From: Gammaproteobacteria bacterium
GTDB taxonomy: Bacteria; Pseudomonadota; Gammaproteobacteria; UBA4575
Reading direction: 5' to 3'
DNA length: 64,000 bases
Assembly: GCA_965222615.1 (NCBI GenBank)
Contig: CBDCUI010000009.1
Location: forward strand, 224,001 to 288,000
Made by a program: the position numbers and the translations under genes. This document shows, piece after piece, positions 10,031 to 48,981 of this stretch. The stretch's first letter is position 1. Each line of letters begins with the position of its first letter. The notes beneath the pieces are model-generated. The model made no database searches and had not been told where the DNA came from. It worked only from the letters and a program-made list of their open reading frames with translations.

Positions 10031-10089
10031 TCTAAAGTTCAATATCAAATAGACTATTCCTTAACGAGTTTTATGCTTAATTTACTTTA

Positions 10090-29653: not shown

Positions 29654-29677
29654 CCCAACTTCTGCCTAATTGTTGGG
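29654..29677 (+). other. 24-bp inverted-arm recombination-like site s1 (CCCAACTTCT gcct AATTGTTGGG)
   Basis: Same 10-4-10 layout as s2-s5; homology to the right element ends here. Confidence 0.6.
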
Positions 29678-29787
29678 TAATGATCTTAATACCCATATAA
29701 TGTCCGCTAACGACCCAATGTATGGACACCTCCAAGCTAAGCAATTAGTTTGTGTGGTGTTAGAAACACAAAAGAAGGAGTCCATAC

Positions 29788-30831
29788 ATGAAACATCTAA
29801 ACATAGTTGGCGTTGATTTAGCAAAAAACGTAATCCAAGTTTGCGTGATGCGCGCGCAGCGACAAGAAGTAATCAATCGTTCCTATAGTCGTACTAAATT
29901 TGCAGTATTTCTCGTTAAACAACAGCGCAGTGTCATCGCCTTTGAAGCATGTGCCAGTAGTCATTATTGGGCACGAAAAGCCAAAGCATTGGGGCATACC
30001 ATCAAAATCATTCCGGCAAAAGCGATCACACCGTATCGTCAAGGCCATAAAACCGATATCAATGATGCCCGCGCGATCGCTGAAGCGGCGAGCCGTCCCC
30101 ACCTACTTGAAGCCCCATTAAAGAGTGTTGAACAACAAGGCTTGCAAGCCGTACAACGTTCAAGAGAGCTTTTGGTACAAGAGCGAACCGGTCTATCCAA
30201 CCACATCCGTGGCATATTGATGGAATTTGGCATCGTCATTCCTAAAGGCTTTGCCGCCTTGCATCAACAGATACCCGAGGTACTAGAAGATGGGGAGAAC
30301 GAGCTACCCGATCTATATCGCCCGACGTTACAGATATTGTACGAACGCTTAGTGCAACTCAAAACAACCATCACGATACTTGATCAACAAATTGCCGCCC
30401 TCATCAAACAACATCCAGGTTGCGAAACGCTCATGAAGATAGAAGGTGTGGGCCCAATCAGTGCGATATTACTGTATGCCAGCCTTGGTAGTGGCGATGC
30501 GTTTAGCCAAGGTAGACAATATGCGGCGTACTTAGGGTTAACGCCCAAGCAATACAGCAGTGGCGGGAAAACGAATCTTATTGGGATAAGTAAAAAGGTT
30601 GCGAATAAACGTTTGCGCTCCGTACTCATTCAAGGAGCACGTGCTTATGTGCACAAGCTCAAAGAACCGAAAAGCCAAAAAGATCGCTGGCTGCTGGCAC
30701 TGATTGAACGTGCCGGCTATGGCAAGGCGGCGGTAGCGTTAGCCAACAAAAATGTGCGCACCGCATGGGCCATGCTGACCCGGGGGACAACGTACAATAA
30801 ACAACATACAACCACGATGCACATTGCATAA
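29788..30831 (+). CDS. IS110-family DEDD transposase/recombinase
   Basis: GVDLAKN, FEAC, KTDINDARAIA, GLTPKQYSSGGK, ALANKNVR. Confidence 0.95.
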   Translation: MKHLNIVGVDLAKNVIQVCVMRAQRQEVINRSYSRTKFAVFLVKQQRSVIAFEACASSHYWARKAKALGHTIKIIPAKAITPYRQGHKTDINDARAIAEAASRPHLLEAPLKSVEQQGLQAVQRSRELLVQERTGLSNHIRGILMEFGIVIPKGFAALHQQIPEVLEDGENELPDLYRPTLQILYERLVQLKTTITILDQQIAALIKQHPGCETLMKIEGVGPISAILLYASLGSGDAFSQGRQYAAYLGLTPKQYSSGGKTNLIGISKKVANKRLRSVLIQGARAYVHKLKEPKSQKDRWLLALIERAGYGKAAVALANKNVRTAWAMLTRGTTYNKQHTTTMHIA

Positions 30832-31085
30832 AAACAAAACCAAGACACTACGTTACATAAAAGTGTAGAAGAGGTTAGGCAAGTAGACCTAGGTAAAGAA
30901 TAAAGAGATTCGCTTCGATGAAACCTGCTCCGCTTTGAGGATAAATAGAATCCATCGACCCAATGAGGCATCGAAGTGCGCATACATACAGGGCTAGAAG
31001 ATCGCAACTTCACGAAAAAGCCGAATATACATCTGCGTCTTTTTCTTTATCAATTTCTGTTTGCTAAACTGGCGGTGTCCATATA
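30832..31085 (+). ncRNA. Putative bridge/seek RNA of the IS110 element
   Basis: Non-coding right end contains TCCGCTTTG (30929-30937) and CGACCCAA (30956-30963), which match opposite strands of the target, and CATACAT/ATATACA, which match the IS ends. Confidence 0.65.
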
Positions 31086-31106
31086 CAAAGCGGACAAATA
31101 TAAATT

Positions 31107-31304
31107 ATGCTTTGTGATTATATACTTTGGTTTCTTATGGCCGCTTTTCTGATCGTGGTTTTAAAGCACAGTTATGTTTTATATATGTATTTAGTCAGAA
31201 AAGAAAGCATATCTATGACAGATAGTGCATCTAAGGTCTATTCGCTATTACTGTTATTAGCGGTTGCCCTGAGCTTGATTTGCCAATTAAACATTATTGA
31301 TTAA
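31107..31304 (+). CDS. Small two-TM hypothetical protein (cassette-like ORF between palindromes)
   Basis: 65-aa hydrophobic ORF filling the interval between two palindromic sites almost exactly. Confidence 0.55.
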   Translation: MLCDYILWFLMAAFLIVVLKHSYVLYMYLVRKESISMTDSASKVYSLLLLLAVALSLICQLNIID

Positions 31305-31311
31305 ATGTCCG

Positions 31312-32735
31312 TATATGGCCTCCCTCCGTTTGCAAGCAAAATATTCAATGACAAAGTAGAGTCGACTGCACACGTATATTCGGCCTCTATTGATAGCAAG
31401 CGCTATTGATAGCAAGCGTTGATGCTGGGCCAGGATGGTGTATTCGCACCTAAGCACCCAATCGCTATTACGTACTCGAAGTACCTGGACATTCACGGGT
31501 TACGCTTAGGTCGGTTCGACCGGTTTGCCATCTAATAAATTACTTTGCAATCGTGGTAGATAATCCTCTTAAGTGTAAGTACATGTAATTTCGTTAATTG
31601 TTTTATTTCACATAAGCGCAAAGTTCGGATCATATTCACTTTCATCTCGCAACATTGCAAATGCCATACGCACGGTTTTATTCGCCAGTGCGACAGCGGC
31701 CACATTCGTATGTTTGGTTTTAGAAAGATGCGTGACCCACTGACTCAATCGATCCTCTTTATGTTTCGCTTGCGAGACGACAGCCCTTGCTCCGTGAATG
31801 AGTAAGGTGCGCAGATAGGCATCGCCGCGTTTACTGATTTCCAGTAAACGCTCTTTATTGCCTGAACTGTGTTGTCTGGGGGTTAAGCCTAAGGCTGCCG
31901 CCATCTGGCGACTGCTCTTGTATTGTTTGGCATCGCCTACCGTGGCAATCAATGCTGTGGCCACCATCGGCCCGACCCCTCGTAGCTGTTGTAGACGCTT
32001 GGTGACTTCGTTTTGTTTGGCCTGTTGTTCAATCGTTTGATCAAGTTCTTTTACACGCGCATCTAATGTTAGTACGTCATGTTGAAGTCCCTGTAGTAAA
32101 GAACGAAAGTGTGGCGTTAAGCCATTCTCTCCGTCTTCTAACCAAGTCGGTATTGCAGCGCGTAATCGATGTAACTGTTGGGGTGCGACTAAGCCATATT
32201 CACTCACTAAGCCTCGAATCTGATTGGCTTTAGCGGTGCGTTGTTGCACCAAAGTATTACGCACACGATGCAGGGCCTGAATGTCTTGCTGTTCAATACT
32301 TTTGATCGTGACAAAGCGCATGTTGGGGCGACTCATGGCTTCGCAAATGGCTTCGGCATCGTTGGCATCATTCTTGTTGCTCTTTACATAAGGCTTTACA
32401 AACTGGGGTGCAATCAATTTCACCACATAGCCTCGTTGTTGTAATACACGAGCCCAGTGGTGTGCACCCGAACAGGCCTCCATGCCAATCTCACCACCCG
32501 GTTCAACATGCTCCACTAATACCTTAAGCCACTTGCTTCGAGATAAGCGTCGTTTGAATACGCACTTTCCCGTGCGATCCACCCCGTGTAGTTGAAAAAC
32601 ATGCTTTGCCAAATCCACACCCATGCGTGTAATCTTGTTCATGTATGGTCTCCTTTATTCAAAGTAACTGGTTCTATCGCTTCCAGTATGGGCACATTAC
32701 GATGCCGTTTAAAGTTGAGGGAGGCCATACCATTG
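31312..32735 (-). mobile_element. IS110/IS1111-type element B, copy 1
   Basis: IRs TATGGCCTCCC/GGGAGGCCATA; reconstructed target AATGTCCG|CTATTGGACGAAAGCAGACAT; has a 16-bp tandem duplication (CTATTGATAGCAAGCG) absent from copy 2. Confidence 0.9.
31608..32642 (-). CDS. IS110-family transposase
   Basis: GVDLAKHVFQ, MEACSGAH, KNDANDAEAI, GLTPRQHSSG. Confidence 0.95.
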   Translation of the reverse strand: MNKITRMGVDLAKHVFQLHGVDRTGKCVFKRRLSRSKWLKVLVEHVEPGGEIGMEACSGAHHWARVLQQRGYVVKLIAPQFVKPYVKSNKNDANDAEAICEAMSRPNMRFVTIKSIEQQDIQALHRVRNTLVQQRTAKANQIRGLVSEYGLVAPQQLHRLRAAIPTWLEDGENGLTPHFRSLLQGLQHDVLTLDARVKELDQTIEQQAKQNEVTKRLQQLRGVGPMVATALIATVGDAKQYKSSRQMAAALGLTPRQHSSGNKERLLEISKRGDAYLRTLLIHGARAVVSQAKHKEDRLSQWVTHLSKTKHTNVAAVALANKTVRMAFAMLRDESEYDPNFALM

Positions 32736-32816
32736 CTATTGGACGAAAGCAGACATAATTGAGGACAAATCAGGTTGGAATCAACAAACTACAAACATAA
32801 AATGACTGCTTACGAC

Positions 32817-34047
32817 TGCCGATTCAATTGATCACCGCAACACTTTATCTTAAGTAACAAAAAAGATGGAGTGTGAAGGATGGGCTATCGAACACGCATT
32901 TATTATAGCGAAGCACAAAAACAGGTGATGTGGGATCGCTGGCAGCAAGGTGATTCTCTCCACACTATTGCGCGCCTTTTTAATCGTGGGCACTCATCGA
33001 TACGACGGATACTTGCAGAAACAGGTGGCATTCGCCCTCCTCAACGAACACGATCAGGCTTCGCACTGACGTTATCGGAACGCGAAGAAATTTCTCGTGG
33101 ACTCGCACGGAATGTATCTTTGCGATCGATTGCTAAACAACTAAAGCGTTCACCTTCCACCATCAGTCGCGAGATTCAGCGCAATGGCGGCATTGCGACA
33201 TATCGCGCGAATGAAGCGGAACAAGCTGCGTGGGATCGGGCGCGCCGTCCTAAAACGTGTAAACTCGCTAGGAACAAAGACTTGTGTCATGCCGTAGCAA
33301 CCAAGTTGCAATTACATTGGTCGCCGGAGCAGATTGCGGGTTGGTTAAAACGCACCTATCCTAATGATGAGAGTAAGACCGTGTCGCATGAAACGATTTA
33401 TCGCAGTTTGTTCATTCAAGCCCGCGGAACCCTGAAAAAAGAGTTACTTGCGTATCTGCGCACGCAACGGACTTTACGTCAGTCAAAGAAAGCCAGTTTG
33501 AAAAACCAAGGCTTAGGTCAAATTAACCATGCGGTCTCCATTCGACAACGTCCGGCATCGGTGGAAGATCGTGCCGTACCGGGACATTGGGAAGGTGATC
33601 TCATTGCAGGCTCAAACAACAGTTATATTGCCACCTTGGTCGAACGACATACACGCTATGTCATGCTAGCCAAAGTAAAGAATAAAGACACGAAGAGTGT
33701 CATCAATGCACTTATCAAGCAAGCGAAGAAATTGCCGAATGAGCTCTACAAATCGTTAACCTGGGATCGCGGTAAAGAGATGGCCGATCATCAACGCTTT
33801 ACCTTAGCGACCGAAATCAAAGTCTACTTTTGCGATCCACAAAGTCCGTGGCAACGGGGTTCAAATGAAAATACAAATCTACTACTTAGACAGTACTTTC
33901 CAAAAGGAATGGACCTGTCTAACATTCATCAGAATCGATTGAATGCAGTAGCAAGACAATTAAACGAACGACCTAGGAAAACACTAGAATTTGAAACACC
34001 AGCAGAAAAATTTAACCAATGTGTTGCAGCGATCGGTTGAGATCGCA
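32817..34047 (+). mobile_element. IS30-family element with 2-bp TSD (AC), inserted in a palindrome
   Basis: IRs TGCCGATTCAATTGATCACCGCAACAC / GTGTTGCAGCGATCGGTTGAGATCGCA; reconstructed target TGACTGCTTACGACCCAAAGCGGACA. Confidence 0.9.
32880..34040 (+). CDS. IS30-family DDE transposase
   Basis: WSPEQI, SHETIY, GHWEGDL, TWDRGKEM, PWQRGSNENTN. Confidence 0.95.
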   Translation: MGYRTRIYYSEAQKQVMWDRWQQGDSLHTIARLFNRGHSSIRRILAETGGIRPPQRTRSGFALTLSEREEISRGLARNVSLRSIAKQLKRSPSTISREIQRNGGIATYRANEAEQAAWDRARRPKTCKLARNKDLCHAVATKLQLHWSPEQIAGWLKRTYPNDESKTVSHETIYRSLFIQARGTLKKELLAYLRTQRTLRQSKKASLKNQGLGQINHAVSIRQRPASVEDRAVPGHWEGDLIAGSNNSYIATLVERHTRYVMLAKVKNKDTKSVINALIKQAKKLPNELYKSLTWDRGKEMADHQRFTLATEIKVYFCDPQSPWQRGSNENTNLLLRQYFPKGMDLSNIHQNRLNAVARQLNERPRKTLEFETPAEKFNQCVAAIG

Positions 34048-34081
34048 ACCCAAAGCGGACATTTCTAACAATCATAAATAC

Positions 34082-34683
34082 ATGACTAAAACGAAAATAA
34101 TTGTATTAAGAATTTTAGCTATACTAGCTATAGTTGAAATACTAATTTTAGTATTCGCTGGATTTCAGCAAATATCGGGCACTAAAGAATTATTTGAAAG
34201 CTTTGAAGGTCCACTTCCACTAATAACAACTGTTTATCTAGTACATAAAAGTGTAGAAGAGGTTAGGCGAGATTCGCTTCGATATAAATATTGGATTCAA
34301 TTTCTGTTTGCTAAACTGGCGGTGTCCATATACTAAAACGAAAATAATTGTATTAAGAATTTTGCTATACTAGCTATAGTTGAAATACTAATTTTAATTC
34401 GCTGGATTTCAGCAAATATCGGGCACTAAAGAATTATTTGAAAGCTTTTCCACTTCCACTAATAACAACTGTTTATCTAGTCACGTATAAATATTGGATT
34501 CTACTGGCAATATTCCCTCTATTTATTTTTGTTAAATCGTTTAGGGAAAAATTTAAATCACGTAATTCATCAAGTCCATTTGTTTCGTTGCTTATTGCAT
34601 TTATTATTATTGGGATACTAATATTTGTAGGAATTATATTTGCAATGTATGCGCCTATTTGGGAATTGTCTAATAAGGCTTAA
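34082..34683 (+). pseudogene. Membrane-protein cassette with GspF/PilC-like motifs, interrupted by a scrambled duplication
   Basis: Joining 34082-34240 to 34481-34683 gives a contiguous protein of about 120 aa (...LFESFEGPLPLIT...IFAMYAPIWEL). The intervening DNA is IS110 end fragments plus an indel-ridden copy of the gene's 5' part. Confidence 0.5.
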
Positions 34684-34704
34684 GTGATGATATTTTTATG
34701 ACCG

Positions 34705-36112
34705 TATATGGCCTCCCTCCGTTTGCAAGCAAAATATTCAATGACAAAGTAGAGTCGACTGCACACGTATATTCGGCCTCTATTGATAGCAAGCGTTGAT
34801 GCTGGGCCAGGATGGTGTATTCGCACCTAAGCACCCAATCGCTATTACGTACTCGAAGTACCTGGACATTCACGGGTTACGCTTAGGTCGGTTCGACCGG
34901 TTTGCCATCTAATAAATTACTTTGCAATCGTGGTAGATAATCCTCTTAAGTGTAAGTACATGTAATTTCGTTAATTGTTTTATTTCACATAAGCGCAAAG
35001 TTCGGATCATATTCACTTTCATCTCGCAACATTGCAAATGCCATACGCACGGTTTTATTCGCCAGTGCGACAGCGGCCACATTCGTATGTTTGGTTTTAG
35101 AAAGATGCGTGACCCACTGACTCAATCGATCCTCTTTATGTTTCGCTTGCGAGACGACAGCCCTTGCTCCGTGAATGAGTAAGGTGCGCAGATAGGCATC
35201 GCCGCGTTTACTGATTTCCAGTAAACGCTCTTTATTGCCTGAACTGTGTTGTCTGGGGGTTAAGCCTAAGGCTGCCGCCATCTGGCGACTGCTCTTGTAT
35301 TGTTTGGCATCGCCTACCGTGGCAATCAATGCTGTGGCCACCATCGGCCCGACCCCTCGTAGCTGTTGTAGACGCTTGGTGACTTCGTTTTGTTTGGCCT
35401 GTTGTTCAATCGTTTGATCAAGTTCTTTTACACGCGCATCTAATGTTAGTACGTCATGTTGAAGTCCCTGTAGTAAAGAACGAAAGTGTGGCGTTAAGCC
35501 ATTCTCTCCGTCTTCTAACCAAGTCGGTATTGCAGCGCGTAATCGATGTAACTGTTGGGGTGCGACTAAGCCATATTCACTCACTAAGCCTCGAATCTGA
35601 TTGGCTTTAGCGGTGCGTTGTTGCACCAAAGTATTACGCACACGATGCAGGGCCTGAATGTCTTGCTGTTCAATACTTTTGATCGTGACAAAGCGCATGT
35701 TGGGGCGACTCATGGCTTCGCAAATGGCTTCGGCATCGTTGGCATCATTCTTGTTGCTCTTTACATAAGGCTTTACAAACTGGGGTGCAATCAATTTCAC
35801 CACATAGCCTCGTTGTTGTAATACACGAGCCCAGTGGTGTGCACCCGAACAGGCCTCCATGCCAATCTCACCACCCGGTTCAACATGCTCCACTAATACC
35901 TTAAGCCACTTGCTTCGAGATAAGCGTCGTTTGAATACGCACTTTCCCGTGCGATCCACCCCGTGTAGTTGAAAAACATGCTTTGCCAAATCCACACCCA
36001 TGCGTGTAATCTTGTTCATGTATGGTCTCCTTTATTCAAAGTAACTGGTTCTATCGCTTCCAGTATGGGCACATTACGATGCCGTTTAAAGTTGAGGGAG
36101 GCCATACCATTG
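34705..36112 (-). mobile_element. IS110/IS1111-type element B, copy 2
   Basis: Transposase identical to copy 1; reconstructed target TATGACCG|CTATTGGCCGAAAGCGGACAT. Confidence 0.9.
34985..36019 (-). CDS. IS110-family transposase
   Basis: Protein identical to that of 31608-32642. Confidence 0.95.
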   Translation of the reverse strand: MNKITRMGVDLAKHVFQLHGVDRTGKCVFKRRLSRSKWLKVLVEHVEPGGEIGMEACSGAHHWARVLQQRGYVVKLIAPQFVKPYVKSNKNDANDAEAICEAMSRPNMRFVTIKSIEQQDIQALHRVRNTLVQQRTAKANQIRGLVSEYGLVAPQQLHRLRAAIPTWLEDGENGLTPHFRSLLQGLQHDVLTLDARVKELDQTIEQQAKQNEVTKRLQQLRGVGPMVATALIATVGDAKQYKSSRQMAAALGLTPRQHSSGNKERLLEISKRGDAYLRTLLIHGARAVVSQAKHKEDRLSQWVTHLSKTKHTNVAAVALANKTVRMAFAMLRDESEYDPNFALM

Positions 36113-36163
36113 CTATTGGCCGAAAGCGGACATCAAGGTTAGCCAATGAAGAGAATAGGGCGC

Positions 36164-36187
36164 GTTAACTTTTTAATAATAGTTGGG
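36164..36187 (+). other. 24-bp site s2 (GTTAACTTTT taat AATAGTTGGG), the empty allele
   Basis: Left arm and spacer match s4; right arm and downstream sequence match s3. Confidence 0.65.
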
Positions 36188-36235
36188 GAGTCATAGATTG
36201 GCCGAGAGGGGATTTATATAGTTCTTTATTTTATA

Positions 36236-36652
36236 ATGTATGAATGGGAATTAATGCTGCTAAAAAAACGTGCCAAAGAACGTGGTCGAATTGCTAGGCA
36301 AGAGCTCTTACTGGCCGACGGTGGCTGCATTAGTGCCGCGGATGCTGCAAAGCAACTGGGAATCACGGAGGTAGAGCTTGAGAGAATCCGTAGTTCTAAT
36401 CAGTTATTGGCTGTTGATGTTGATAGCAAGTTTCAATATCCGATTTGGCAATTCGAGGGAGCAAATTTAGTTCCCGGATTACAAGAAATATTAGAAATAC
36501 TTGGCGATGATGATCCGTGGTCGAATTTCATCTTTTTGTTGGGTCACGACTATGCAGTAGATGGATGTCGTCCAATCGACAAACTTCGTGTAGGTGATAT
36601 TGATTCAGTCAAACGCGCTGCACATACGTACGGTCATCATGGTGCAGTTTAA
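36236..36652 (+). CDS. HTH + Xre/MbcA/ParS-like antitoxin-type protein (left copy)
   Basis: AADAAKQLGIT HTH, YPIWQF, DGCRPIDKL. Comparison with the right copy suggests a true start at 36244 and an extra A in an A7 run. Confidence 0.6.
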   Translation: MYEWELMLLKKRAKERGRIARQELLLADGGCISAADAAKQLGITEVELERIRSSNQLLAVDVDSKFQYPIWQFEGANLVPGLQEILEILGDDDPWSNFIFLLGHDYAVDGCRPIDKLRVGDIDSVKRAAHTYGHHGAV

Positions 36653-36675
36653 ATAAAGCAAATAATAGGTAATTT

Positions 36676-36858
36676 ATAAACAATTCAATTCAACGCATAC
36701 CTGGAATTGCTGGAAGCAAACCATTGCTCAAGTGTGTATGCGTCCCCACAAAAATAATTGCAGAGCGATTTAAAGCCGGCGAATCAATTAGTGCGCTTGC
36801 AGTGGACTATGGTTGTAGGAACACAGAAATAGAAGAAGCGATTAGATTCGAACTTTAG
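36676..36858 (+). CDS. DUF433-like small protein (no canonical start codon visible)
   Basis: IQRIPGIAGSKP...IIAERFKAGESISALAVDYG...IEEAIRFEL; the diverged mirror copy keeps the frame with many synonymous changes. Confidence 0.55.
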   Translation: MNNSIQRIPGIAGSKPLLKCVCVPTKIIAERFKAGESISALAVDYGCRNTEIEEAIRFEL

Positions 36859-36879
36859 TCACAAATCTCCCGAAATAAA

Positions 36880-36992
36880 CCTGAATTCCAGGTACTTACT
36901 TTTACTCCCGAACTTACACTCAAGTACCGAATTTTACTCCTGGGGGACTGATGTTTACTCCCGAAAAGTGCTGGGTATTACTAGGAATTACA
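36880..36992 (-). repeat. Tn7-like transposon end (terminal TGT plus tandem TnsB-type binding sites)
   Basis: Reverse complement reads TGTAATTCCTAGTAATACC followed by several GGAGTAAA repeats; homologous to the end at 37110. Confidence 0.8.
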
Positions 36993-37037
36993 ATAGTCTC
37001 GAACCGATAAGGTGATTAACCATCTGGTTAATCGTTT

Positions 37038-37065
37038 TCTTAACATAATATATATTATGCGAAGT
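37038..37065 (-). other. dif: XerC/XerD dif site
   Basis: Minus strand ACTTCGCATAA-TATATA-TTATGTTAAGA has the 11-6-11 layout and matches the dif consensus (E. coli GGTGCGCATAA TGTATA TTATGTTAAAT). Confidence 0.88.
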
Positions 37066-37244
37066 TAAATATGTGGGTGCCTAATAGAATTTGACGTCTC
37101 TTAAACATGTGTGATTCTTAGTAAAACCAAGCACTTTTCAGGACTAAAAGTCAGTACTTCAGGAGTAAAACTAAGTACTTGAGTAATTAATAAGACTAAA
37201 ACTAGATACCTGAATTCATGATCTATTTCTAAAGATTTGTGACT

Positions 37245-37427
37245 TTAAAGTTCGAATCTGATGGCTTCTTCGATATAAGAGTCTTTACAGCCGTAATCCA
37301 TAGCCAGCTCAGTAATCGATTCGCCGGCTTTAAATCGCTCTGCAATTATTTTTGTGGGGACGCATACACACTTGAGCAATGGTTTGCTTCCAGCAATTCC
37401 AGGTATGCGTTGAATTGAATTGTTTAT
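37245..37427 (-). CDS. DUF433-like small protein (mirror copy)
   Basis: ...AGESITELAMDYGCKDSYIEEAIRFEL*; homologous to 36676-36858. Confidence 0.55.
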   Translation of the reverse strand: MNNSIQRIPGIAGSKPLLKCVCVPTKIIAERFKAGESITELAMDYGCKDSYIEEAIRFEL

Positions 37428-37450
37428 AAATTACCTATTATTTGCTTTAT

Positions 37451-37858
37451 TTAAACTGCACCATGATGACCGTACGTATGTGCAGCGCGTTTGACTGAAT
37501 CAATATCACCTACACGAAGTTTGTCGATTGGACGACATCCATCTACTGCATAGTCGTGACCCAACAAAAAGATGAAATTCGACCACGGATCATCATCGCC
37601 AAGTATTTCTAATATTTCTTGTAATCCGGGAACTAAATTTGCTCCCTCGAATTGCCAAATCGGATATTGAAACTTGCTATCAACATCAACAGCCAATAAC
37701 TGATTAGAACTACGGATTCTCTCAAGCTCTACCTCCGTGATTCCCAGTTGCTTTGCAGCATCTGCGGCATTAACGCAGCCACCGTCGACTAGCAAAAGTT
37801 CTTGTCTGGCTATTCGACCACGTTCTTTAACACGCTTTTCTGCAGCACTAATTCCCAT
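37451..37858 (-). CDS. HTH + Xre/MbcA/ParS-like antitoxin-type protein (right copy)
   Basis: Near-identical to 36236-36652, with an intact N-terminus. Confidence 0.65.
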   Translation of the reverse strand: MGISAAEKRVKERGRIARQELLLVDGGCVNAADAAKQLGITEVELERIRSSNQLLAVDVDSKFQYPIWQFEGANLVPGLQEILEILGDDDPWSNFIFLLGHDYAVDGCRPIDKLRVGDIDSVKRAAHTYGHHGAV

Positions 37859-37910
37859 CTCAGTATTATAAAGAATTAATCAAGTCCCCTCTTCGTTGTA
37901 TGTATCACTC

Positions 37911-37934
37911 CCCAACTATTGCACAAAAGATGGG
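37911..37934 (-). other. 24-bp site s3 (CCCATCTTTT gtgc AATAGTTGGG), junction of the recombinase module
   Basis: Right arm and continuation AATAGTTGGGGAGT are identical to s2. Confidence 0.65.
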
Positions 37935-38055
37935 GAGCGAATCATACATATTAACTATCTGTTTTATAATAATATTTTCAATTATTTTGTTGAAAAAATA
38001 ACATAACTAGAGTAAATTTCTCACCAACTTTTTGAGTAATAGATAAATAGTTGGT

Positions 38056-38706
38056 ATGTTAGAAACATCAACATCCGAAGTGAAAAACTTCAATCACCCA
38101 GCTCCTGGGTCGACCATAAAAGTCGAACCAATTCGAACTGTTCAAGCGATTCACAAAATTAAAACCATGCTTGAACCTAATCCGCGTAACTATTGTTTAT
38201 TCGTTCTTGGGATTAATACCGCATTTCGAGCTTCTGAATTACTTTCAATAAAGATTGGACAGGTTAAATATTTAAATCCAGGAGATCGGTTAGAAGTTAA
38301 ACAACCAAAAACGAAAAAGTATCGATCCGTGACAATCAATCAGTCAGCTCATGATGCGATACGTCGATTAATTATAGAAAAAGATATAGAAGCTCTCAAA
38401 AAAAGAAACTTGAATATCTCTGATGACGATGCATTTCTATTTACTGGCCAACGCGGATCGTCAGCTCTTAAGGTTTCAACTTTAAACAATATGGTTAAGG
38501 ATTGGTGTAGAAAAGTTAATCTGAAAGGTAATTTTGGTAGTCACACTCTACGAAAAACCTGGGGATTTATGCAGCGCAAGAAGCAAGACACCCCTATTCC
38601 TTTATTGATGCAAGCATTAGGTCATGCAACTCAAAGACAGACTATGGAATATTTATGCATTCAAGAAAAAGAAATTGAGAATGTTTATACAGCAATGGAA
38701 CTATAG
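38056..38706 (+). CDS. Small (catalytic-domain) tyrosine recombinase
   Basis: Catalytic residues present: R (NTAFRASELL), K (QPKTKK), HxxR (SHTLRKT), H (LGH), Y (TMEYL). Confidence 0.9.
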   Translation: MLETSTSEVKNFNHPAPGSTIKVEPIRTVQAIHKIKTMLEPNPRNYCLFVLGINTAFRASELLSIKIGQVKYLNPGDRLEVKQPKTKKYRSVTINQSAHDAIRRLIIEKDIEALKKRNLNISDDDAFLFTGQRGSSALKVSTLNNMVKDWCRKVNLKGNFGSHTLRKTWGFMQRKKQDTPIPLLMQALGHATQRQTMEYLCIQEKEIENVYTAMEL

Positions 38707-38827
38707 TAGTGGCTAGGATTTATACAACCTTTCAAAGCTATATATTATTCTATGATGTATCCATATACTTTATATAGAATAATGTTACGTTTACTCCTAA
38801 TGGTGGTGCGCATAATGAGGGTTAAAA

Positions 38828-39832
38828 ATGGCACACGGTAGATTGCTCAGACAACTCATTCGTGCTGGTGTTAATGCGCCCGGAGAAGAATTTCGTGAGG
38901 TAGCCGAAAAGGTTATTCGCGAAGAACGTGAAAAAAAACATCATTTACTAGCTAATGATCTAGAACGGATTCTGTACGGCGAAAGTAATGATGAAGCACG
39001 TACCCTCTTACCACTATCGCTACCTGAAGTGCCAAAGGATCGAGAGCGACATATACCACTTTTAGAAATTCGCGAACCAGTTCGTTCTTTCGCAGACATT
39101 GTTCTTACCAAAGACAACCGTGAGATACTCGAACATGTTTTGCAAGAACAGGGACGGCGTGATGTGCTTGGCTCTTATGGTTTGAAACCTGCCAATCGTT
39201 TACTATTCTGCGGGCCACCTGGATGTGGAAAGACCTTAGCTGCAGAAGTATTAGCGACCGAGCTTGGTTTACCACTACTCTTAGTGCGCTTTGATGCGGT
39301 TGTGTCATCCTATCTTGGTGAAACTGCAGCAAATTTACGAAAAGTGTTTCAGTACCTTGAAACTGGACGTTATGTTGTTTTGTTTGATGAGTTTGATGCG
39401 ATAGCAAAAGATCGTGCGGACGCATCTGAGCATGGTGAATTACGAAGGGTTGTAAATGCATATCTGCAAATGATGGATAGCTATCGTGGCAATTGTTTGT
39501 TACTTGCCGCATCAAACCATGAAGGTTTACTTGATAAAGCCCTTTGGCGACGATTTGATGAAGTACTTTTCTATCGTCGCCCAACAACAGAAGAAATTAT
39601 TGATTTGGTTGCTGTAAAACTTCGAGGTATTCGCTATAACTTTGAAACAGAAAACGAACCGACTATCGCTAACTTCAATGGGATGGCGCACGCTGACATT
39701 GAGCGTGTATTGATCCGCGCAATTAAACATATGATCTTATCGGGTCGTGAATTTTTAAGCACTGACCACATCGCACTTGCCCTAGAACGAGAACGGGAAA
39801 GACGATCTGTCGCTGAACATAAGTCGATTTAA
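38828..39832 (+). CDS. AAA+ ATPase (IetA-like partner of an S8 protease)
   Basis: GPPGCGKT, SSYLGETAANL, LFDEFDAI, LDKALWRRFD. Confidence 0.85.
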   Translation: MAHGRLLRQLIRAGVNAPGEEFREVAEKVIREEREKKHHLLANDLERILYGESNDEARTLLPLSLPEVPKDRERHIPLLEIREPVRSFADIVLTKDNREILEHVLQEQGRRDVLGSYGLKPANRLLFCGPPGCGKTLAAEVLATELGLPLLLVRFDAVVSSYLGETAANLRKVFQYLETGRYVVLFDEFDAIAKDRADASEHGELRRVVNAYLQMMDSYRGNCLLLAASNHEGLLDKALWRRFDEVLFYRRPTTEEIIDLVAVKLRGIRYNFETENEPTIANFNGMAHADIERVLIRAIKHMILSGREFLSTDHIALALERERERRSVAEHKSI

Positions 39833-39837
39833 CAGTA

Positions 39838-42147
39838 ATGGTAGATCGACTACCGCATCTAAGAATGGCTCGAGCAGAGCCGATTAACGAACGACGCCGA
39901 CGACCAGGATTTGGACCTGGGCGGCCTAAAGACCCTGGTCGTCACGCCCAAGAGTTAAAAGAAAACCTTGATGAGCATAAAGACTCACCAGAAAACGAAT
40001 TAGCTGGTTTCGATCCGCGCCACTTACTCAAACTCGAAATCGAAGGCATTGCTGGTGATGAGCTTTCAAACATTCCAGAATTCAGTGTCGTTACTGAAGA
40101 AGGGAGTAACGTAACTGTGTTGTTTGCTACGGAAAGCGCATTGAAAGAATTTCGTAGTCGATTAGAACAACTTGAAGCAGGTAATCGTGCGACACGTGAG
40201 CAAATATTATTTGCAGTTAAGGGATTTGATTATATTACTGCGGATGATCGCCGAGGCCCCCGGTTAAGCACGGATGGAACGCCAAACAAAGAGCTTTTCA
40301 TACTGGATGTTGAACTTTGGGCGCTTGATCTTCGTAATGAACGAGATGCGATGATCGAATATTTCGTTGAGTTTTGTCATCAATCTAATATTGACATTCG
40401 TGATCAAGTTAATCATCCATCGCTTGTTTTGTATCGTGTAGAAACATCTTCTGATGGTCTAAACAAATTACTTAACATGCGTGATGTAAGGCGTGTTGAC
40501 TTACCCCCTCAATATGAATTTGAGATGGAGTTACTTGATGCGACGGTGAACTCATTACCAGAAATTAAACCACCACCCGACAACGCACCCACCATAGCAA
40601 TATTAGATTCAGGAATAGCCAGTGCTCACCCACTTTTAGAGCATGCTGTTGGAGACGCTCAATCATTTGTTGACGAAGATCCCATCGACCTTGTTGGCCA
40701 CGGTACTACAGTAGCAGGTCATGCTTTACTTGGTGATGTAGCAACTGTCGCTCAAAGCGCAACGCATACCGCTGAACTTCGAATACTCAGCGGTAAAATT
40801 GGTCAAGGCCGAGATGATGTAACTTTGATTGAAAATCGCATTATTGAGGCGGTGCAATATTTTAAGGAACACTATAATTGTAGAGTGTTCAACCTATCTA
40901 TCGGTGTTTATGCTCGCCCTTACCTAGGCGGACACGTTGATAGACTTGCAGCTACTATTGATTGGTTATCTCGTGAGTATCAAGTGCTGTTCATTGTCTC
41001 GACGGGTAATATCCATTCAAGTGTGCAAGGGCCAGCCAATTGGCGAGAAGGTTACCCACGCTATTTGTTGGAAGATGAATTTCGCTTGTTAGATCCTGCT
41101 CCAGCATTGAACGCAATAACAGTAGGCGCATTAGCTAATTATGAGGTCGCCCGAATGGCTGCACGTAATCCTGACGATCCTTCATATCAACCTATTGCGC
41201 ATCGTGATCAACCATCACCCTTTACGTTGTGTGGTCCAGGTCCAAATGATGCAATAAAGCCAGATTTTGCCGACTACGGTGGTAATCGTTATATTGATTC
41301 ACGCCAAGCACCGCGACCATTAGCAGGAAATGAATTAGGTGAGCTCGGATTAAGTAATAAATTTGCCACTGGAAACTTGTATAGAGTTTCAGTGGGCACA
41401 AGTTTTGCTGCACCTCGTGTTGCACACTGTGCTGCACATATATTACGTCAGTATCCCGATGCGTCACCGTCGCTTCTTAGGGCGTTGTTGGCTGCTCATT
41501 CAACTGTGCCTACTTCCACAGCGGATTTGGATCTAGACAAATCAGAGGTACTACGTCTTGTTGGATACGGTAAGCCCAACAAAGAATATTCACTGTATTC
41601 CGAAAACAATCGCGTTACAATTTTGGCCGAAGAGACACTTGCTCCTAATGAACATCACTTCTACCAACTTCCTATGCCGGATGATCTTTTTAAGTCTCCT
41701 GCTCGTCGACCTCGACGAATTACTGTTGCTCTCGCACATACGCCACGAGTTCGACGAACGCGTTTAAAATACCGGGAAAGTGAGATGTCTTTTCGAATAA
41801 TTAAAGCCGAGAGCCTTGAATCCGTGACTCAAGCTTATCGGAGGCTGCGGAAAGATGAGAAAGAAGATCTAATTCCGGAAAGTGATTTCACACCAGGCCC
41901 TACGCTGCGTGAAGGTGGTTCATTGCAGTGTGCTACACGCATACTTGGTCAAGTGGATGAGCGATACCGAAGAAAACCATACTTCTTAGTTGTAACCAAT
42001 AATGTACCAGATTGGGTTAGCTCAATTGATTCGGAGCCTTATTCGCTTGTAATCGTTATTGAAGATCAATCAGACGTTGAAGTAAATCTATATACGCAAA
42101 TCCAATTAGAGCTACAAGAGCGTGTGCGCACACAGGCTCGGAATTAA
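39838..42147 (+). CDS. S8 subtilase-family serine protease (IetS/Y4bN-like)
   Basis: Catalytic triad ILDSG, GHGTTVA, GTSFAAP; GYGKP; no signal peptide; coupled to the AAA gene. Confidence 0.88.
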   Translation: MVDRLPHLRMARAEPINERRRRPGFGPGRPKDPGRHAQELKENLDEHKDSPENELAGFDPRHLLKLEIEGIAGDELSNIPEFSVVTEEGSNVTVLFATESALKEFRSRLEQLEAGNRATREQILFAVKGFDYITADDRRGPRLSTDGTPNKELFILDVELWALDLRNERDAMIEYFVEFCHQSNIDIRDQVNHPSLVLYRVETSSDGLNKLLNMRDVRRVDLPPQYEFEMELLDATVNSLPEIKPPPDNAPTIAILDSGIASAHPLLEHAVGDAQSFVDEDPIDLVGHGTTVAGHALLGDVATVAQSATHTAELRILSGKIGQGRDDVTLIENRIIEAVQYFKEHYNCRVFNLSIGVYARPYLGGHVDRLAATIDWLSREYQVLFIVSTGNIHSSVQGPANWREGYPRYLLEDEFRLLDPAPALNAITVGALANYEVARMAARNPDDPSYQPIAHRDQPSPFTLCGPGPNDAIKPDFADYGGNRYIDSRQAPRPLAGNELGELGLSNKFATGNLYRVSVGTSFAAPRVAHCAAHILRQYPDASPSLLRALLAAHSTVPTSTADLDLDKSEVLRLVGYGKPNKEYSLYSENNRVTILAEETLAPNEHHFYQLPMPDDLFKSPARRPRRITVALAHTPRVRRTRLKYRESEMSFRIIKAESLESVTQAYRRLRKDEKEDLIPESDFTPGPTLREGGSLQCATRILGQVDERYRRKPYFLVVTNNVPDWVSSIDSEPYSLVIVIEDQSDVEVNLYTQIQLELQERVRTQARN

Positions 42148-42233
42148 AGTTTCGAATTTCTGCGTGCAAACTCTATGATGAAATCGACAAGATATGCAGT
42201 ATCGTTTTTAACCATACCACACGTATTTTCACC

Positions 42234-42257
42234 CCCAACTTTTATTAAAAAGTTAAC
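42234..42257 (-). other. 24-bp site s4 (GTTAACTTTT taat AAAAGTTGGG)
   Basis: Lies within the inverted repeat 42234-42302 of 36118-36187; bounds the recombinase-AAA-S8 module. Confidence 0.65.
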
Positions 42258-42302
42258 GCGCCCTATTCTCTTCATTGGCTAACCTTGATGTCCGCTTTTG
42301 GC

Positions 42303-42552
42303 TGTGGTCTCAATAGGTCGATGCAACACTTTGAAATAGAGTGAAAAAAGGCTGCAAAAGCTAAGAGAAATGCAATTACATCAACATCTTAAGAGTAGAT
42401 CAATAAAAGATGGCTCGAAGCAAGTAATAATGCAGTATTTAATGTAACCGGTTCATCCAAAAACAACTCAACACTAAATGGTCATCCGTTTGAGTCAACC
42501 TCTTTATTACTAAAAGTTTAGCAAGGTGTTGCATTGACCGATTGAATCGGCA
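42303..42552. mobile_element. 250-bp non-autonomous IS30-ended element in a palindrome
   Basis: Ends TGTGGTCTCAATAGGTCGATGCAACAC and GTGTTGCATTGACCGATTGAATCGGCA resemble the IS30 IRs at 32817/34047; no transposase. Confidence 0.75.
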
Positions 42553-42589
42553 GTCGTTAGCGGACATTATATGGGTATTAAGATCATTA

Positions 42590-42613
42590 CCCAACAATTA
42601 GGCAAAAGTTAAT
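42590..42613 (-). other. 24-bp site s5 (ATTAACTTTT gcct AATTGTTGGG)
   Basis: Overlaps the 58-bp inverted repeat 42553-42610 of 29657-29714; lies just downstream of tniQ. Confidence 0.6.
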
Positions 42614-42651: not shown

Positions 42652-44238
42652 TTAGAATGAACCATGCACGTGCATAGATCTTTCGACTATTTCATCCCTG
42701 CCTTTTTGTTTTACATCGCTCAAATTAACTAGTATTGGTAGGAATGTTAAGTGTTCGTATACGATCTTATTATTAGTGATGTCAATAAAAGATAGCGTTT
42801 TTGCAAAATTGAGTTTATTTAGATCGCGCTCCAAGTTATCTGAATGCACCCATATTTGTTCACTCAAAGAAACTAACCATACAAATTGTAAATAAAGTTC
42901 TGCAAGGTATTGCCACAACCATTCTTTGGTAAACCGATAGACAAAGGGTCGATTATTAAAATGCATGCATTTACTATCTTCAGACCATAATAATTTTCCT
43001 GGACCGTTTTCTGACCAATCCATCCATACCGATGAATCCAAATAATGTGATGCGTAGTCCTCTACATTAATTATTTGCCCTTGCGGAAATACACATTTTT
43101 GCCAAAGCGAATATGCAGTACACCATAATGACGTAGCTTTAGATAATTTGACACTACAAAACTTATTACAGTGAAACATAGTCCCTGACTTACGACTTGA
43201 ATAATCAATATGCACTTTCAATTCCTGATCAAACGACTTTATGAAGGATGTTATAAATTGAGTGAGGTGGTTATAAGTCCGTAATTTGGGGAATCTTTCT
43301 ATCAAATTTTTACCGTTTAGGTATTCTTTAGTAAGAGTTCTATCACGTAGAATCTCCTTGTAATTTTTTACGTCATACTTATCGAAACAACCCACATCAC
43401 ATGAAAGTGGATAAAATTCCCTAGTAGGGATATTTATTTTTGATTTCAAGTACGTGGTTTTTGAAGTTCTAACATTTCCAACGTTAACTAAACAAGTCTT
43501 CACCCAATCCGGACCAGCTGAAAAATGATGTAAATAGGCTAAATTTGCATAGTCGACACAACCCTTCAGCCAAATCCGAACAGAATTGGAAGGGTTATTG
43601 AGTTCCTCGGCTTTGTTAATCCAATATCTATATTCTTCTATTATTTTCTTGCGTTCTAAAATATCTGTGCCGACTCTATATCTATCTATATCCCAAAAAT
43701 TTGTTCCACACTTAATGTTAGGGCAACTATATATTTGTAAGAAAGCATTCGTAACTTTATATTTATGTAAATAGCTCCCACATTTTATACAGATAGTAGT
43801 TAATGGAGCGTGATGAATTGGGCAGTGACTCCATGCGAGAATTTGATGGAAAACAAGATGTGTGCCCCGCTGGACACATTGAGGACAAATGCGTAAATGT
43901 TTTGATAAATTTAATGGATTGTTAATAGAGATTGTTGATTTATAGGCACAGATGTTTTTGATATTCGAGGAATAGTATTCTCCACACGATGCCTCTAACC
44001 AATCACTCTTCCAACCAGTCAGCTGCAGAATTCGTTTTACGTTAAAATTACGAACGTCGTCTGGATAGGTGCTTATATCGCTAATGTAATCCGACGCATA
44101 ACTTTTTCGAGTTCCAAAGTTTCTTTTAAAGTCTGACCAATCAAAATGATTTAATATTGCTAGCTTCGCTGTAATAGACCACAGAGTCTCACCTATTGGA
44201 TTCCATTCTTGAGCACCAATCAGGCTACGGCTATTCAT
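42652..44238 (-). CDS. tniQ: TniQ/TnsD-family target selector
   Basis: PIGETLWS N-terminus; zinc-finger CPQC...HQ..WSHCPIH...CIKCG...CPNIKCG; long C-terminal extension; last gene of the tns operon. Confidence 0.8.
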   Translation of the reverse strand: MNSRSLIGAQEWNPIGETLWSITAKLAILNHFDWSDFKRNFGTRKSYASDYISDISTYPDDVRNFNVKRILQLTGWKSDWLEASCGEYYSSNIKNICAYKSTISINNPLNLSKHLRICPQCVQRGTHLVFHQILAWSHCPIHHAPLTTICIKCGSYLHKYKVTNAFLQIYSCPNIKCGTNFWDIDRYRVGTDILERKKIIEEYRYWINKAEELNNPSNSVRIWLKGCVDYANLAYLHHFSAGPDWVKTCLVNVGNVRTSKTTYLKSKINIPTREFYPLSCDVGCFDKYDVKNYKEILRDRTLTKEYLNGKNLIERFPKLRTYNHLTQFITSFIKSFDQELKVHIDYSSRKSGTMFHCNKFCSVKLSKATSLWCTAYSLWQKCVFPQGQIINVEDYASHYLDSSVWMDWSENGPGKLLWSEDSKCMHFNNRPFVYRFTKEWLWQYLAELYLQFVWLVSLSEQIWVHSDNLERDLNKLNFAKTLSFIDITNNKIVYEHLTFLPILVNLSDVKQKGRDEIVERSMHVHGSF

Positions 44239-44250
44239 TATTTGATAATG

Positions 44251-45240
44251 TTAATGTGCTGTACGTACAACTAGATCTTTAATCTGTTCAATTGCTACAT
44301 GGCTGATAGCATCTTCGATGAATCTCTTTTCCAATTGAAGTGACATATCATCTTGTTCTGGCAATGCTTTTAGTATCCAACGTAATAACGCTGAGATCGG
44401 TTGTAGAGGAATTTCATCAAATTTTGCAATATGTTCAGCTCTGCACATCTCCATAAGAGAATCCCAAATTAATTCTGCCGAATCTAATAAACGCCAGCCT
44501 GCGTCATAAGCTTGTGGAGCAAAATACCTTGTATAGGAGCATCCCGACCCAGGAGGATATTCTGAATGTGAATCGAGCATTTTTATTATGCGTCTAAAAT
44601 CTCTTTTGTCGGCAATGCCTTCAAATCGATGTGTCGCAGTCATGAATCGCCCAAGCAATTGTTGCTTTCCTGAACTTCTGAAATTGTTTTTTATATCTAT
44701 TAATTCTGGTTGACCGACTAGCACTGTCACTAAACGCACGTCTTTCATTTTCAATGAATTATGAAGATCCATAAGATATTCATATTGTGTTAAATCTAAC
44801 CATTCTGCTTCATCAATAAATAAAAGATAACGATGTTCACGCGTTTGAAAGGCACGCTCAACCATAAAATCAATACAACGTCTGCGCTTTATTCTTGCGG
44901 CTTTAGAATCAATTAATGAATAATTTAGTGCTTGCAGCATCTCATCAAAGAAGCGTAATTCAGTAGTACTACTTTGTGATGGTTGCCACATGCTCAACAT
45001 CGTAGTTGGAATTGGGCTTCCTAAAACTTCTTCACAATTATCAACAATGTAACGAATTGCTTGAGTCTTCCCTACCCTTTGATTTCCCCACACTAAACCG
45101 CCTGGTAAAAGTTTATCCAACCAAACTAGAATTGCATTTACGAATTCTTCTAATGGACGCGTCGGAATAATTGCTGCATCACGCAATATTGGGTGATCGT
45201 CAATAAACTCTACTCTCTCGTTATTATGCTTTCTTTCCAT
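44251..45240 (-). CDS. tnsC: TnsC/TniB-like AAA ATPase
   Basis: Walker A GNQRVGKT, Walker B LFIDEAE, LVGQPEL, GRF. Confidence 0.82.
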   Translation of the reverse strand: MERKHNNERVEFIDDHPILRDAAIIPTRPLEEFVNAILVWLDKLLPGGLVWGNQRVGKTQAIRYIVDNCEEVLGSPIPTTMLSMWQPSQSSTTELRFFDEMLQALNYSLIDSKAARIKRRRCIDFMVERAFQTREHRYLLFIDEAEWLDLTQYEYLMDLHNSLKMKDVRLVTVLVGQPELIDIKNNFRSSGKQQLLGRFMTATHRFEGIADKRDFRRIIKMLDSHSEYPPGSGCSYTRYFAPQAYDAGWRLLDSAELIWDSLMEMCRAEHIAKFDEIPLQPISALLRWILKALPEQDDMSLQLEKRFIEDAISHVAIEQIKDLVVRTAH

Positions 45241-45252
45241 TGTGTTTATATG

Positions 45253-48565: not shown

Positions 48566-48981
48566 AAAATAGTGTCCTGTAATTCAAGCATCGACTTTTA
48601 CTACGAAGTTTCCCCAAAATCTGATTTTTAGTCCTGTTTCTTCACGTCTAAATTAGTCCTCGAATTGGACTGATTTCAATAATTACAATAATTTAGGACT
48701 GTTTCTTAGTGTTCGGTATTACTAGGAACTACAACATGCCCTATACCAGAAAGTTACTTTTAAGATTACTCTGGTTACCATGATACGTGACTACTTATTA
48801 GATAGGCTTTCTATTACCTAATGGCTACACAAAGTCGAATATTGTTTTAGAAAAATATCGTATCTTAATGAATTTATTAGAATTATATTTTTAAGAATAA
48901 CTGGCCTTATCCCACGATTAATATATTCTAATTCTATTAGTAAAATTATATATTAGAATCTTCTAATATTATTAATATTTT

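Follow-up and report, generated by a model that had tools for sequence, protein, structure and literature searches.

Palindromic 24-bp sites beside a small tyrosine recombinase as candidate borders of gene cassettes in and beyond a Tn7-like region

Introduction

How does a pair of anti-phage genes come to be present in one mobile element and absent from a related element beside it, and which sequences mark the borders of the DNA that was gained or lost? This question is raised by a 64,000-nucleotide (nt) stretch of the genome of a Gammaproteobacteria bacterium (GenBank assembly GCA_965222615.1, contig CBDCUI010000009.1, positions 224,001 to 288,000 of the forward strand), which was analysed at its full length and is called the window here; coordinates given without a locus name refer to it. 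In the window, two Tn7-like elements are placed left end to left end. The cargo of one of them (element 2) includes a gene for a tyrosine recombinase of 216 amino acids (aa), and five copies of a 24-bp near-palindrome, s1 to s5, are distributed over the two elements. An initial annotation had proposed that the recombinase acts on these sites and that the sites divide the cargo into modules, forming an integron-like system without attC sites that tolerates non-matching spacers.

From comparisons of DNA and protein sequences we consider it likely that the 24-bp sites are core recombination sites of the 216-aa recombinase, which would move gene cassettes. In the window, a cassette with an Ite-like anti-phage gene pair would be bounded by s3 and s4, and s2 would be an unoccupied site.

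Results

The site is a 24-bp palindrome laid out as 10-4-10, with the arm core AACT..T / A..AGTT around four variable bases. Two copies are on the plus strand: s1 (29654-29677, CCCAACTTCT-gcct-AATTGTTGGG) forms the left border of mobile DNA and adjoins a thioesterase gene, and s2 (36164-36187, GTTAACTTTT-taat-AATAGTTGGG) has the appearance of an unoccupied, 'attB-like' site. On the minus strand, s3 (37911-37934, CCCATCTTTT-gtgc-AATAGTTGGG) is the primary site and the putative upstream junction of the cassette, s4 (42234-42257, GTTAACTTTT-taat-AAAAGTTGGG) is the putative downstream junction, and s5 (42590-42613, ATTAACTTTT-gcct-AATTGTTGGG) is located 38 bp from the tniQ stop codon. The start of s3 is 145 bp upstream of the recombinase ATG, a position that is conserved in relatives. 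A near-identical copy of s5 was found in another genome (G016) without any tns genes. All five 24-mers read exactly as the initial annotation had written them.

The pattern AACTTNTNNNNAANNGTTGGG, searched with at most one mismatch, has exactly five matches in the window, namely s1 to s5, and the half-site AAWWGTTGGG alone recovered the same five against 0.70 expected. In 100 shuffled versions of the window the mean number of matches was 0.04 and no shuffle reached five. The motif is thus far more frequent in the window than expected by chance. In the whole 3.10-Mb genome, the same search gave ten matches, five of them in the window, against two for a reversed-pattern control. The remaining near-matches (contigs 1, 7 and 8) have flanks that are not homologous to the window and no recombinase, and they may be chance occurrences. 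The five sites do not amount to five independent cases. s1 and s5 are inside a 58-nt inverted repeat (98% identity), and s2 and s4 are inside a 70-nt inverted repeat (97%). Since these are duplicated DNA, the window has three independent sites; all five exist as proposed, but they cannot be counted separately.

Alignment of the sites with their flanks shows where homology between the two elements switches. Up to and including site position 16, s2 is identical to s4, and so are their left flanks; from site position 15 onward s2 tracks s3, right flanks included. Thus s2 consists of the left arm and spacer of s4 joined to the right arm and flank of s3, and element 1 lacks exactly the 4.3 kb between s4 and s3. 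The join falls at one edge of the central four bases. Read as its reverse complement, s2 agrees exactly with the empty target that would be predicted. For s1 and s5, similarity sets in at site position 4 and continues from there, and the left flanks of the two show no relation. That homology between the elements starts and stops at the sites, as first proposed, is therefore upheld.

The segment that differs, whose limits are taken from the homology switch (37921..42243, plus strand), is present in element 2 and absent from element 1. It contains the recombinase gene and two genes downstream of it on the same strand, a gene for an IteA-like AAA ATPase (38828..39832; NF042959, E-value 3.5e-68, 230 bits against a cut-off of 510; PF00004) and a gene for an IteS-like S8 peptidase (39838..42147; NF042956, 5.4e-43, 147 bits against 900; PF00082). 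Because both proteins score below the NCBIfam cut-offs for the Ite equivalogs, they are called 'Ite-like' here. If the segment were circularised, its two inner arms would form a CCC..GGG palindrome.

The recombinase gene (38056..38706, plus strand) encodes a protein that matches PF00589 (E-value 1.3e-18, 67.8 bits, cut-off 27.1) and has a catalytic domain only. R58, K85, H163, R166, H190 and Y199 are invariant in all 20 aligned family members. In a profile search against PDB, residues 35-214 match the catalytic domain of XerA, which leaves no room for a core-binding domain. The family comprises 2467 proteins at an E-value of 1e-3 or less among 2595 candidates, and the best 120 listed members have 172-244 aa, mostly 212-217. 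The recombinase thus belongs to a large, widespread and tightly conserved family of about 200-217 aa with the catalytic domain alone, for which the sources searched gave no specific family name. Scores against named families are below their cut-offs: 21.9 bits for the integron-integrase model TIGR02249 (cut-off 265), 48 for XerC (335), 41.5 for XerD (330), 60.9 for XerA (220), and 23.4 and 19.9 for FimB/FimE-type invertases in NCBIfam (222 and 221; E-value 3.6e-5). An AlphaFold model built from the 20-sequence alignment was poor (pLDDT, the predicted local distance difference test, 50.9).

Directly upstream of the recombinase ATG there is a second, wide-spaced inverted repeat, read by eye (CCAACTTTTT ... 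AATAGTTGG, 38022..38055, plus strand). A comparable repeat of arm-like sequence with an 11-14-bp gap is located directly before the start codon in gammaproteobacterial, cyanobacterial and Nitrospirota relatives (L032-L045, L048-L088). It is probably an accessory binding site or an operator for autoregulation.

Relatives of the recombinase numbered 186 in contigs from one genome per species and at least 464 in metagenome contigs, and 80 loci were kept from each set. A 24-bp near-palindrome, xxxAACTnnT-NNNN-AnnAGTTxxx, starts about 143-176 bp before the recombinase start codon in gammaproteobacteria, alphaproteobacteria, cyanobacteria, Nitrospirota and Desulfobulbales. When a site was counted at nine or more matches to the ten fixed core positions, it was found in the 280 nt upstream of the gene at 47 of 58 genome loci and 59 of 69 metagenome loci; 22 and 11 loci, respectively, were left out for want of the gene motif or of sufficient upstream sequence. 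Control windows contained a site in 1 of 178 and 3 of 136 cases, or 4 of 314 together. An earlier count had given the upstream site at 64 of 80 loci.

The outer triplets of the site are palindromic and specific to clades (CCC..GGG, ACT..AGT, ATT..AAT, GCT..AGC, CTC..GAG and GTT..AAC). When the outer triplets were mapped as labels on a tree of 62 recombinases, of which 50 had a label, the label changed 17 times, compared with 27-36 times in 500 shuffles. This figure indicates that the triplets track the clades; relatedness alone can give such a result, so it is not proof of co-evolution. The central four bases vary even between nearly identical recombinases. On two scaffolds of one cyanobacterial assembly (L048 and L050), near-identical recombinases have sites with the same arms and with centres that are reverse complements of each other (ggcg and cgcc). 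The same architecture upstream of homologues across phyla, with outer arms that vary with clade, argues strongly for the assignment of the sites to the recombinase at 38056 that the initial annotation had made. The association with Tn7-like cargo is loose, and the system is not specific to Tn7: in a tblastn search with the Tns proteins of the window as queries, Tn7-like genes were near only 2 of 80 related genome loci, and tests of 10 cyanobacterial neighbour proteins gave no Tn7 family match.

Six alphaproteobacterial loci (L090, L091, L093, L094, L099 and L100) have a pair of complete sites upstream of the gene, one about 175 bp and the other about 55 bp from it, at a spacing of 121-123 bp and with reverse-complement centres (atcc/ggat, actc/gagt and taca/tgta). 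This layout could be a small invertible segment able to switch the gene's own promoter.

Replacement of one segment by another was seen in a pair of Nitrospirota-type loci, L086 and L087. The shared DNA of the two loci is 97% identical up to and into the first site and 94% identical from the second site through the recombinase gene. Between the two sites are non-homologous segments of 4.0 and 3.3 kb; one contains genes for an AAA_21/SMC-type ATPase and an unknown open reading frame (ORF), and the other those for ThsB-TIR and a SLATT protein. The inner arms of each segment would form a perfect palindrome of its own type. This is a cassette replacement in which the recombinase gene is outside the cassette. 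Together with the presence and absence of the recombinase-Ite segment in the window and the mixed-arm second sites described below, it favours the idea of cassette shuffling.

Paired sites were found at other loci as well. In two complete genomes of 3.6-4.4 Mb (G056 and G057; loci L034 and L035), the only matches to the gammaproteobacterial type of site with up to two mismatches are the two that flank the recombinase gene and Gabija genes. A second site is located 1.4-8.9 kb downstream in L128/L129, L032, L038 and plasmid pC of Spartinivicinus ruber. The second sites of L128/L129, L032 and L038 have mixed arms; L128 has an array of further sites, and about 1.6 kb separates the sites of L128/L129. 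Among 14 pairs of related loci there are nine in which the start of nucleotide homology and the outer edge of the primary site are no more than 11 bp apart; a contig end sets the limit in one of the nine. L048/L050 and the metagenome copies L144/L145 have their gene-side border at a site.

The genes beside the recombinase vary and are often defensive. Defence cargo includes Gabija at four loci, OLD/AriA-like ATPases at two and the Ite-like pair in the window, and other cargo includes an amine oxidase with a metallo-hydrolase, a chemotaxis receptor and cytochromes. At L042, a 229-bp direct repeat (97% identity; 394-622 and 9856-10084), each copy of which ends 23 bp past a site, brackets a 9.4-kb segment with the recombinase gene and multihaem cytochrome genes. 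The cytochrome segment indicates that cassettes need not carry defence genes.

The distantly Tn7-like core of element 2 is on the minus strand (42652..47887) and consists of tniQ (42652-44238), tnsC (44251-45240), tnsB (45253-47148) and an ORF in the position of tnsA (47126-47887). Family matches are weak (TniQ 25.4 bits, cut-off 27; TniB 22.1, cut-off 22.4; rve_3 23.1, cut-off 26.5) except that for AAA_22, which passes at 45.7 bits. There is a weak PDB match to TnsB (3e-4) and none for TnsC, and the gene order fits a TnsB-TnsC-TniQ operon. The tnsA-position ORF has no match in Pfam, NCBIfam, PHROG or PDB. The TnsA endonuclease is required for cut-and-paste transposition.

The right end is at 48589..48737 (minus strand, terminus 48737) and the left end of element 2 at 37107..37255 (plus strand, interior to the right). 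Element 1 has a left-type end at 36850..36998 (minus strand, terminus 36998, interior to the left) with no partner end and no tns genes. A distance of 108 bp separates the two left-type ends, which face each other; similarity is about 73% over their terminal 150 bp and 94% in the DNA just inside. No second right end or tns set for element 1 was found in the genome, which has one TnsB, one recombinase and one right end; the genome matches to the end of element 1 are its own 27-bp tip only, and the right-end probe found a single right end. Of the two transposons of the initial annotation, element 1 thus has a left end only. The 5-mers that flank the ends differ, so that there is no 5-bp target duplication. 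The region 36850-37255 is rearranged, possibly through the sites themselves.

The order of element 2, read on the minus strand, is tniQ, s5, 21 bp, a 284-bp miniature inverted-repeat transposable element (MITE), 27 bp, s4, S8 peptidase, AAA ATPase, recombinase, s3, a 135-aa ORF and the left end; the peptidase, ATPase and recombinase genes are on the strand opposite to the reading direction of tniQ. The order of element 1 on the plus strand is thioesterase, s1, the same 21 bp, a nest of IS110- and IS30-family insertion sequences (ISs), the same 27 bp, s2, a 138-aa paralogue of the 135-aa ORF and the left end. The 138-aa ORF (36236..36652, plus strand) and the 135-aa ORF (37451..37858, minus strand) overlap the arms of an inverted repeat (36264-36857 / 37246-37839, 94% identity). 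They have no Pfam, NCBIfam or PHROG family above noise, the sole match being that of the 36236-36652 ORF to NCBIfam MoeZ (E-value 0.0085). Each of the two lies between a Tn7-like left end and a site, immediately inside the end and immediately outside s2 or s3.

The interval between s5 and s4 (42258..42589, minus strand) consists of about 48 bp and the 284-bp MITE (42285-42568). The interval between s1 and s2 (29678..36163, plus strand) has about 21 and 27 bp in common with it, split by the IS nest (29699-36136), which occupies the position of the MITE in the other arm. Pfam matches identify IS110-family genes at 29788-30831 (plus), 31608-32642 (minus) and 34985-36019 (minus) and an IS30-family gene at 32880-34040 (plus). 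Division of the cargo into modules by the sites is thus supported for one real cassette, that between s3 and s4; the other two intervals are not cargo but about 48 bp invaded by the MITE and the IS nest.

The IS110-family gene at 29788-30831 sits 16 bp into the terminal repeat of the MITE. A second IS110-family element is present in two copies with 98.7% identity (31296-32762 and 34698-36133) that flank the IS30-family element at 32880-34040; a third copy is on contig 7 (L030, 4826-6276) and has no site at its ends. The core of the MITE has four further copies with 97-100% identity and one partial copy in the genome (G000 C9:926717, C8:4382, C9:787128, C9:675302 and C9:1003035). An autonomous partner of the MITE may be the IS30-family element at 32796-34062, whose ends have 80-82% similarity to the terminal inverted repeats of the MITE.

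A genome of the same genus (G001) is syntenic with the window up to 29142 and again from 48940, and has a different 12-kb insert without sites in between (G001:C1, about 1020400-1032700). Variable DNA thus has a hotspot here, with a giant adhesin gene on one side and a 207-aa ORF on the other. In G016, a recombinase cassette and an s5-like site precede the same 207-aa ORF, and there are no Tn7 genes. A 2840-aa ORF (20620-29142) has seven DUF11 repeats and an OmpA domain, and its G+C content reaches 0.50 against a background of 0.36-0.39; antisense ORFs evenly spaced within it (22141-23769) suggest internal repeats of about 414 bp. A scan of the window for Rfam families reported only a tRNA and no attC-like family, as far as Rfam has a model for attC.

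Discussion

We propose that the 24-bp sites serve the 216-aa recombinase as follows. Each site would consist of two inverted arms of 9-10 bp, each bound by one recombinase monomer, with strand exchange at the central 4-6 bp. Two sites would synapse and strands would be swapped at the edge of this centre. In the window, the cassette would be the recombinase gene with its promoter region and the Ite-like anti-phage pair, inside the cargo of one Tn7-like element. Recombination of the site on a circular cassette with a chromosomal site would result in insertion, the reverse reaction would remove the cassette, and a segment between two sites could be swapped. In the orientation of the recombinase gene, the upstream junction would combine the outside left arm with the centre and right arm of the cassette, and the downstream junction would combine the left arm of the cassette with the centre and right arm of the target. 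In the window, element 2 may have gained the cassette by insertion, or element 1 may have lost it by deletion. s1/s5 and s2/s4 would be copies that arose by inverted duplication of site-bearing DNA, not separate cargo borders.

The homology switch at one edge only, together with the difference between the centres, points to exchange of one strand pair, after which the junction would be finished by replication or host enzymes. Such an exchange would explain why matching spacers are unnecessary. Binding of the arms by the recombinase, the cleavage positions and the one-strand exchange are all read from the DNA and should be taken as predictions.

Several observations weigh against this reading. 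The homology between s1 and s5 switches at the opposite edge of the centre from that among s2, s3 and s4. The centres of the two flanking sites differ in seven of seven loci (the window, L034, L035, L032, L128, L038 and pC), and to our knowledge classical tyrosine recombinases do not tolerate differing central bases; the same differences would fit a recombinase that tolerates non-matching spacers, as the initial annotation had supposed. Most cyanobacterial, alphaproteobacterial and plasmid loci show one site. In distantly related pairs, a stop of homology at the site may show where functional constraint ceases and need not mark a junction. When the 160 loci were compared all against all, 31 rows resulted, and all four borders were at sites in L086/L087 only. 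In six pairs checked by eye, variable segments were downstream of the gene with no site at their borders.

The loci with one site would suit the first alternative, that the recombinase is mainly a resolution system for plasmid dimers or Tn7-like cointegrates. It would act through a single site in each copy; on this view, duplication would have left the extra sites behind and the cassette pattern would be a by-product. One site stands beside the gene at most loci; eight plasmids carry relatives with 47-56% identity, and in one plasmid of 9.5 kb the recombinase gene is beside parA, as suits resolution of plasmid dimers. Known resolution sites consist of a core site with accessory repeats, and the 24-bp site with the second repeat near the gene start seems to resemble them. 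The ORF in the position of tnsA matches no TnsA family or structure, and Benler et al. (2021, PMC8649781) report tyrosine 'resolvases' from clades of Tn7-like elements without tnsA. Resolution, however, needs one site per replicon, whereas here second sites with mixed arms bound discrete segments, and in L086/L087 a segment has been swapped between two sites. The scarcity of Tn7 genes around the relatives (2 of 80 loci, and none of the 10 cyanobacterial neighbour proteins) does not favour a role in cointegrates. The variation of spacers between near-identical recombinases would also be odd for a site that has to match its own copy. We therefore regard resolution as an unlikely main function.

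Quite improbable, in our judgement, is the second alternative, an inversion switch in which the recombinase flips the 13-kb segment between s1 and s5 or the 6-kb segment between s2 and s4, in the manner of small promoter invertases. Both pairs are inverted and have identical centres (gcct and taat), but the inverted duplication itself explains the shared centres, because 58-70 nt around the sites are 97-98% identical. The two Tn7-like ends share no target duplication, and the tip of element 1 is closer to the right end than the tip of element 2 is, as inversion could bring about. The paired sites about 121 bp apart with reverse-complement centres in alphaproteobacterial relatives, and the weak matches to FimB/FimE-type invertases, would also suit a switch. 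No second orientation was seen, and inversion accounts neither for the presence and absence of the cassette in the window nor for the replacement in L086/L087.

That the sites are not for recombination at all, being hairpins or ends of IS110 elements or MITEs, Tn7-like transposase sites, an operator or chance palindromes in AT-rich DNA, is hardly credible: IS110-family genes and a MITE do lie between s1 and s2 and between s5 and s4, the near-palindromes could form hairpins and the one upstream of the gene could be an operator, but other copies of the MITE end about 21-27 bp short of the sites (query positions 53-336 only), genomes that do not have these insertion sequences also carry sites beside the recombinase, the repeat in the Tn7-like ends is a different one and those ends contain no 24-bp site, chance is excluded by the shuffles and control windows, and an operator would not mark the borders of swapped DNA.

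Two specific candidates of this kind had been rejected separately. The sites are not hybrid junctions of an IS110-family element, since the shared DNA is the tip of the 284-bp MITE, which is found elsewhere without sites, and the ISs are nested in the position of the MITE. Nor are they binding sites of the Tn7-like transposase, since three ends share a different motif and contain no such site.

Recombination that moves cassettes is thus the reading that we prefer for the 24-bp sites. A broader proposal is more tentative: the recombinase and its sites may form a widespread, self-contained cassette system, integron-like in function and built from unrelated parts, which inserts, removes and swaps cassettes without matching crossover bases, probably through exchange of one strand pair. 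If this is true, bacteria would have a second route besides integrons for collecting and exchanging small cassettes, anti-phage ones especially, with chromosomes, plasmids and Tn7-like transposons in several phyla as its setting. The turnover of defence genes at fixed places would become easier to explain, and the site with the small recombinase gene would be a simple sequence marker for new defence cassettes. Such a recombination system, of one protein and a 24-bp site, would also be very small, and the specificity of the site seemingly shifts with three outer bases. With about 1.6 kb between its sites, as in L128/L129, a cassette that carries the recombinase would rank with the smallest known integrating elements that are autonomous. 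How tyrosine recombinases can bypass the homology rule is a question on which the apparent tolerance of unmatched centres would also bear.

In a search of the literature available to us, which included six site words as text, neither this recombinase family nor its site was found described; the site words matched unrelated primers only, and the supplements of Benler et al. and Smyshlyaev et al. may list the family under another name. Smyshlyaev et al. (2021) class simple recombinases as having core-binding and catalytic domains. Benler et al. describe tyrosine 'resolvases' in Tn7-like elements without tnsA and infer cointegrate resolution. The 216-aa recombinase is like these in being a tyrosine recombinase within Tn7-like cargo; it differs in that most of its relatives are not beside Tn7 genes.

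In function the system is like integrons and the Xer-dependent dif modules. The initial annotation called the sites integron-like but not attC, and this description was borne out. In integrons and here, a tyrosine recombinase gene stands beside a primary site, and further sites bound cassettes that are promoterless or small. Platforms that are otherwise identical hold different cassettes, here L086/L087; defence cargo and residence in Tn7-type transposons are also shared. In the integron reaction between attI and attC, one strand pair is exchanged, and the differing centres found here would need the same. However, the recombinase described here has 216 aa and no core-binding domain, and it scores far below the cut-off of the integron-integrase model. 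Its sites are 24-bp palindromes of the double-strand type in a 10-4-10 layout, whereas integrons have folded attC sites of 57-141 bp. One cassette carries the recombinase gene itself, and the gene points away from the site rather than being divergent from an array.

Cre and loxP resemble the system in having one protein and one short palindromic site with a central spacer. Cre differs in that it has a core-binding domain, uses a 34-bp site and requires matching spacers. With sites of the Cre/loxP type, segments between heterospecific sites can be swapped without excision; we know of no natural system in which cassette exchange between heterospecific sites is established. FimB and FimE have about 200 aa, consist essentially of the catalytic domain and act on short inverted repeats near promoters, all of which is similar, but the recombinase matches their models with only 20-23 bits against cut-offs of about 221. 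Each of them flips a single fixed segment, and neither is known to move cassettes.

Xer dif modules and Tn6022 of Acinetobacter share short two-arm sites with variable centres that bound modules of accessory genes. Their sites (PMC11014353) have 28 bp in an 11-6-11 layout, and their recombinases are full-length two-domain proteins of the XerC/XerD type (about 300 aa), partly supplied by the host. Here a single, element-encoded protein with the catalytic domain only would act on a 24-bp site, and its XerC and XerD scores are well below the respective cut-offs. With models far below their cut-offs, a 24-bp site and no core-binding domain, the system belongs, on sequence criteria, to none of the integrons, the Xer/dif modules or the FimB/FimE invertases. 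Tn6022 (PMC11014353) is a Tn7-like element that has its own XerC-like recombinase and a dif-like site and generates diversity, and this pair is the closest published analogue of the recombinase and sites presented here.

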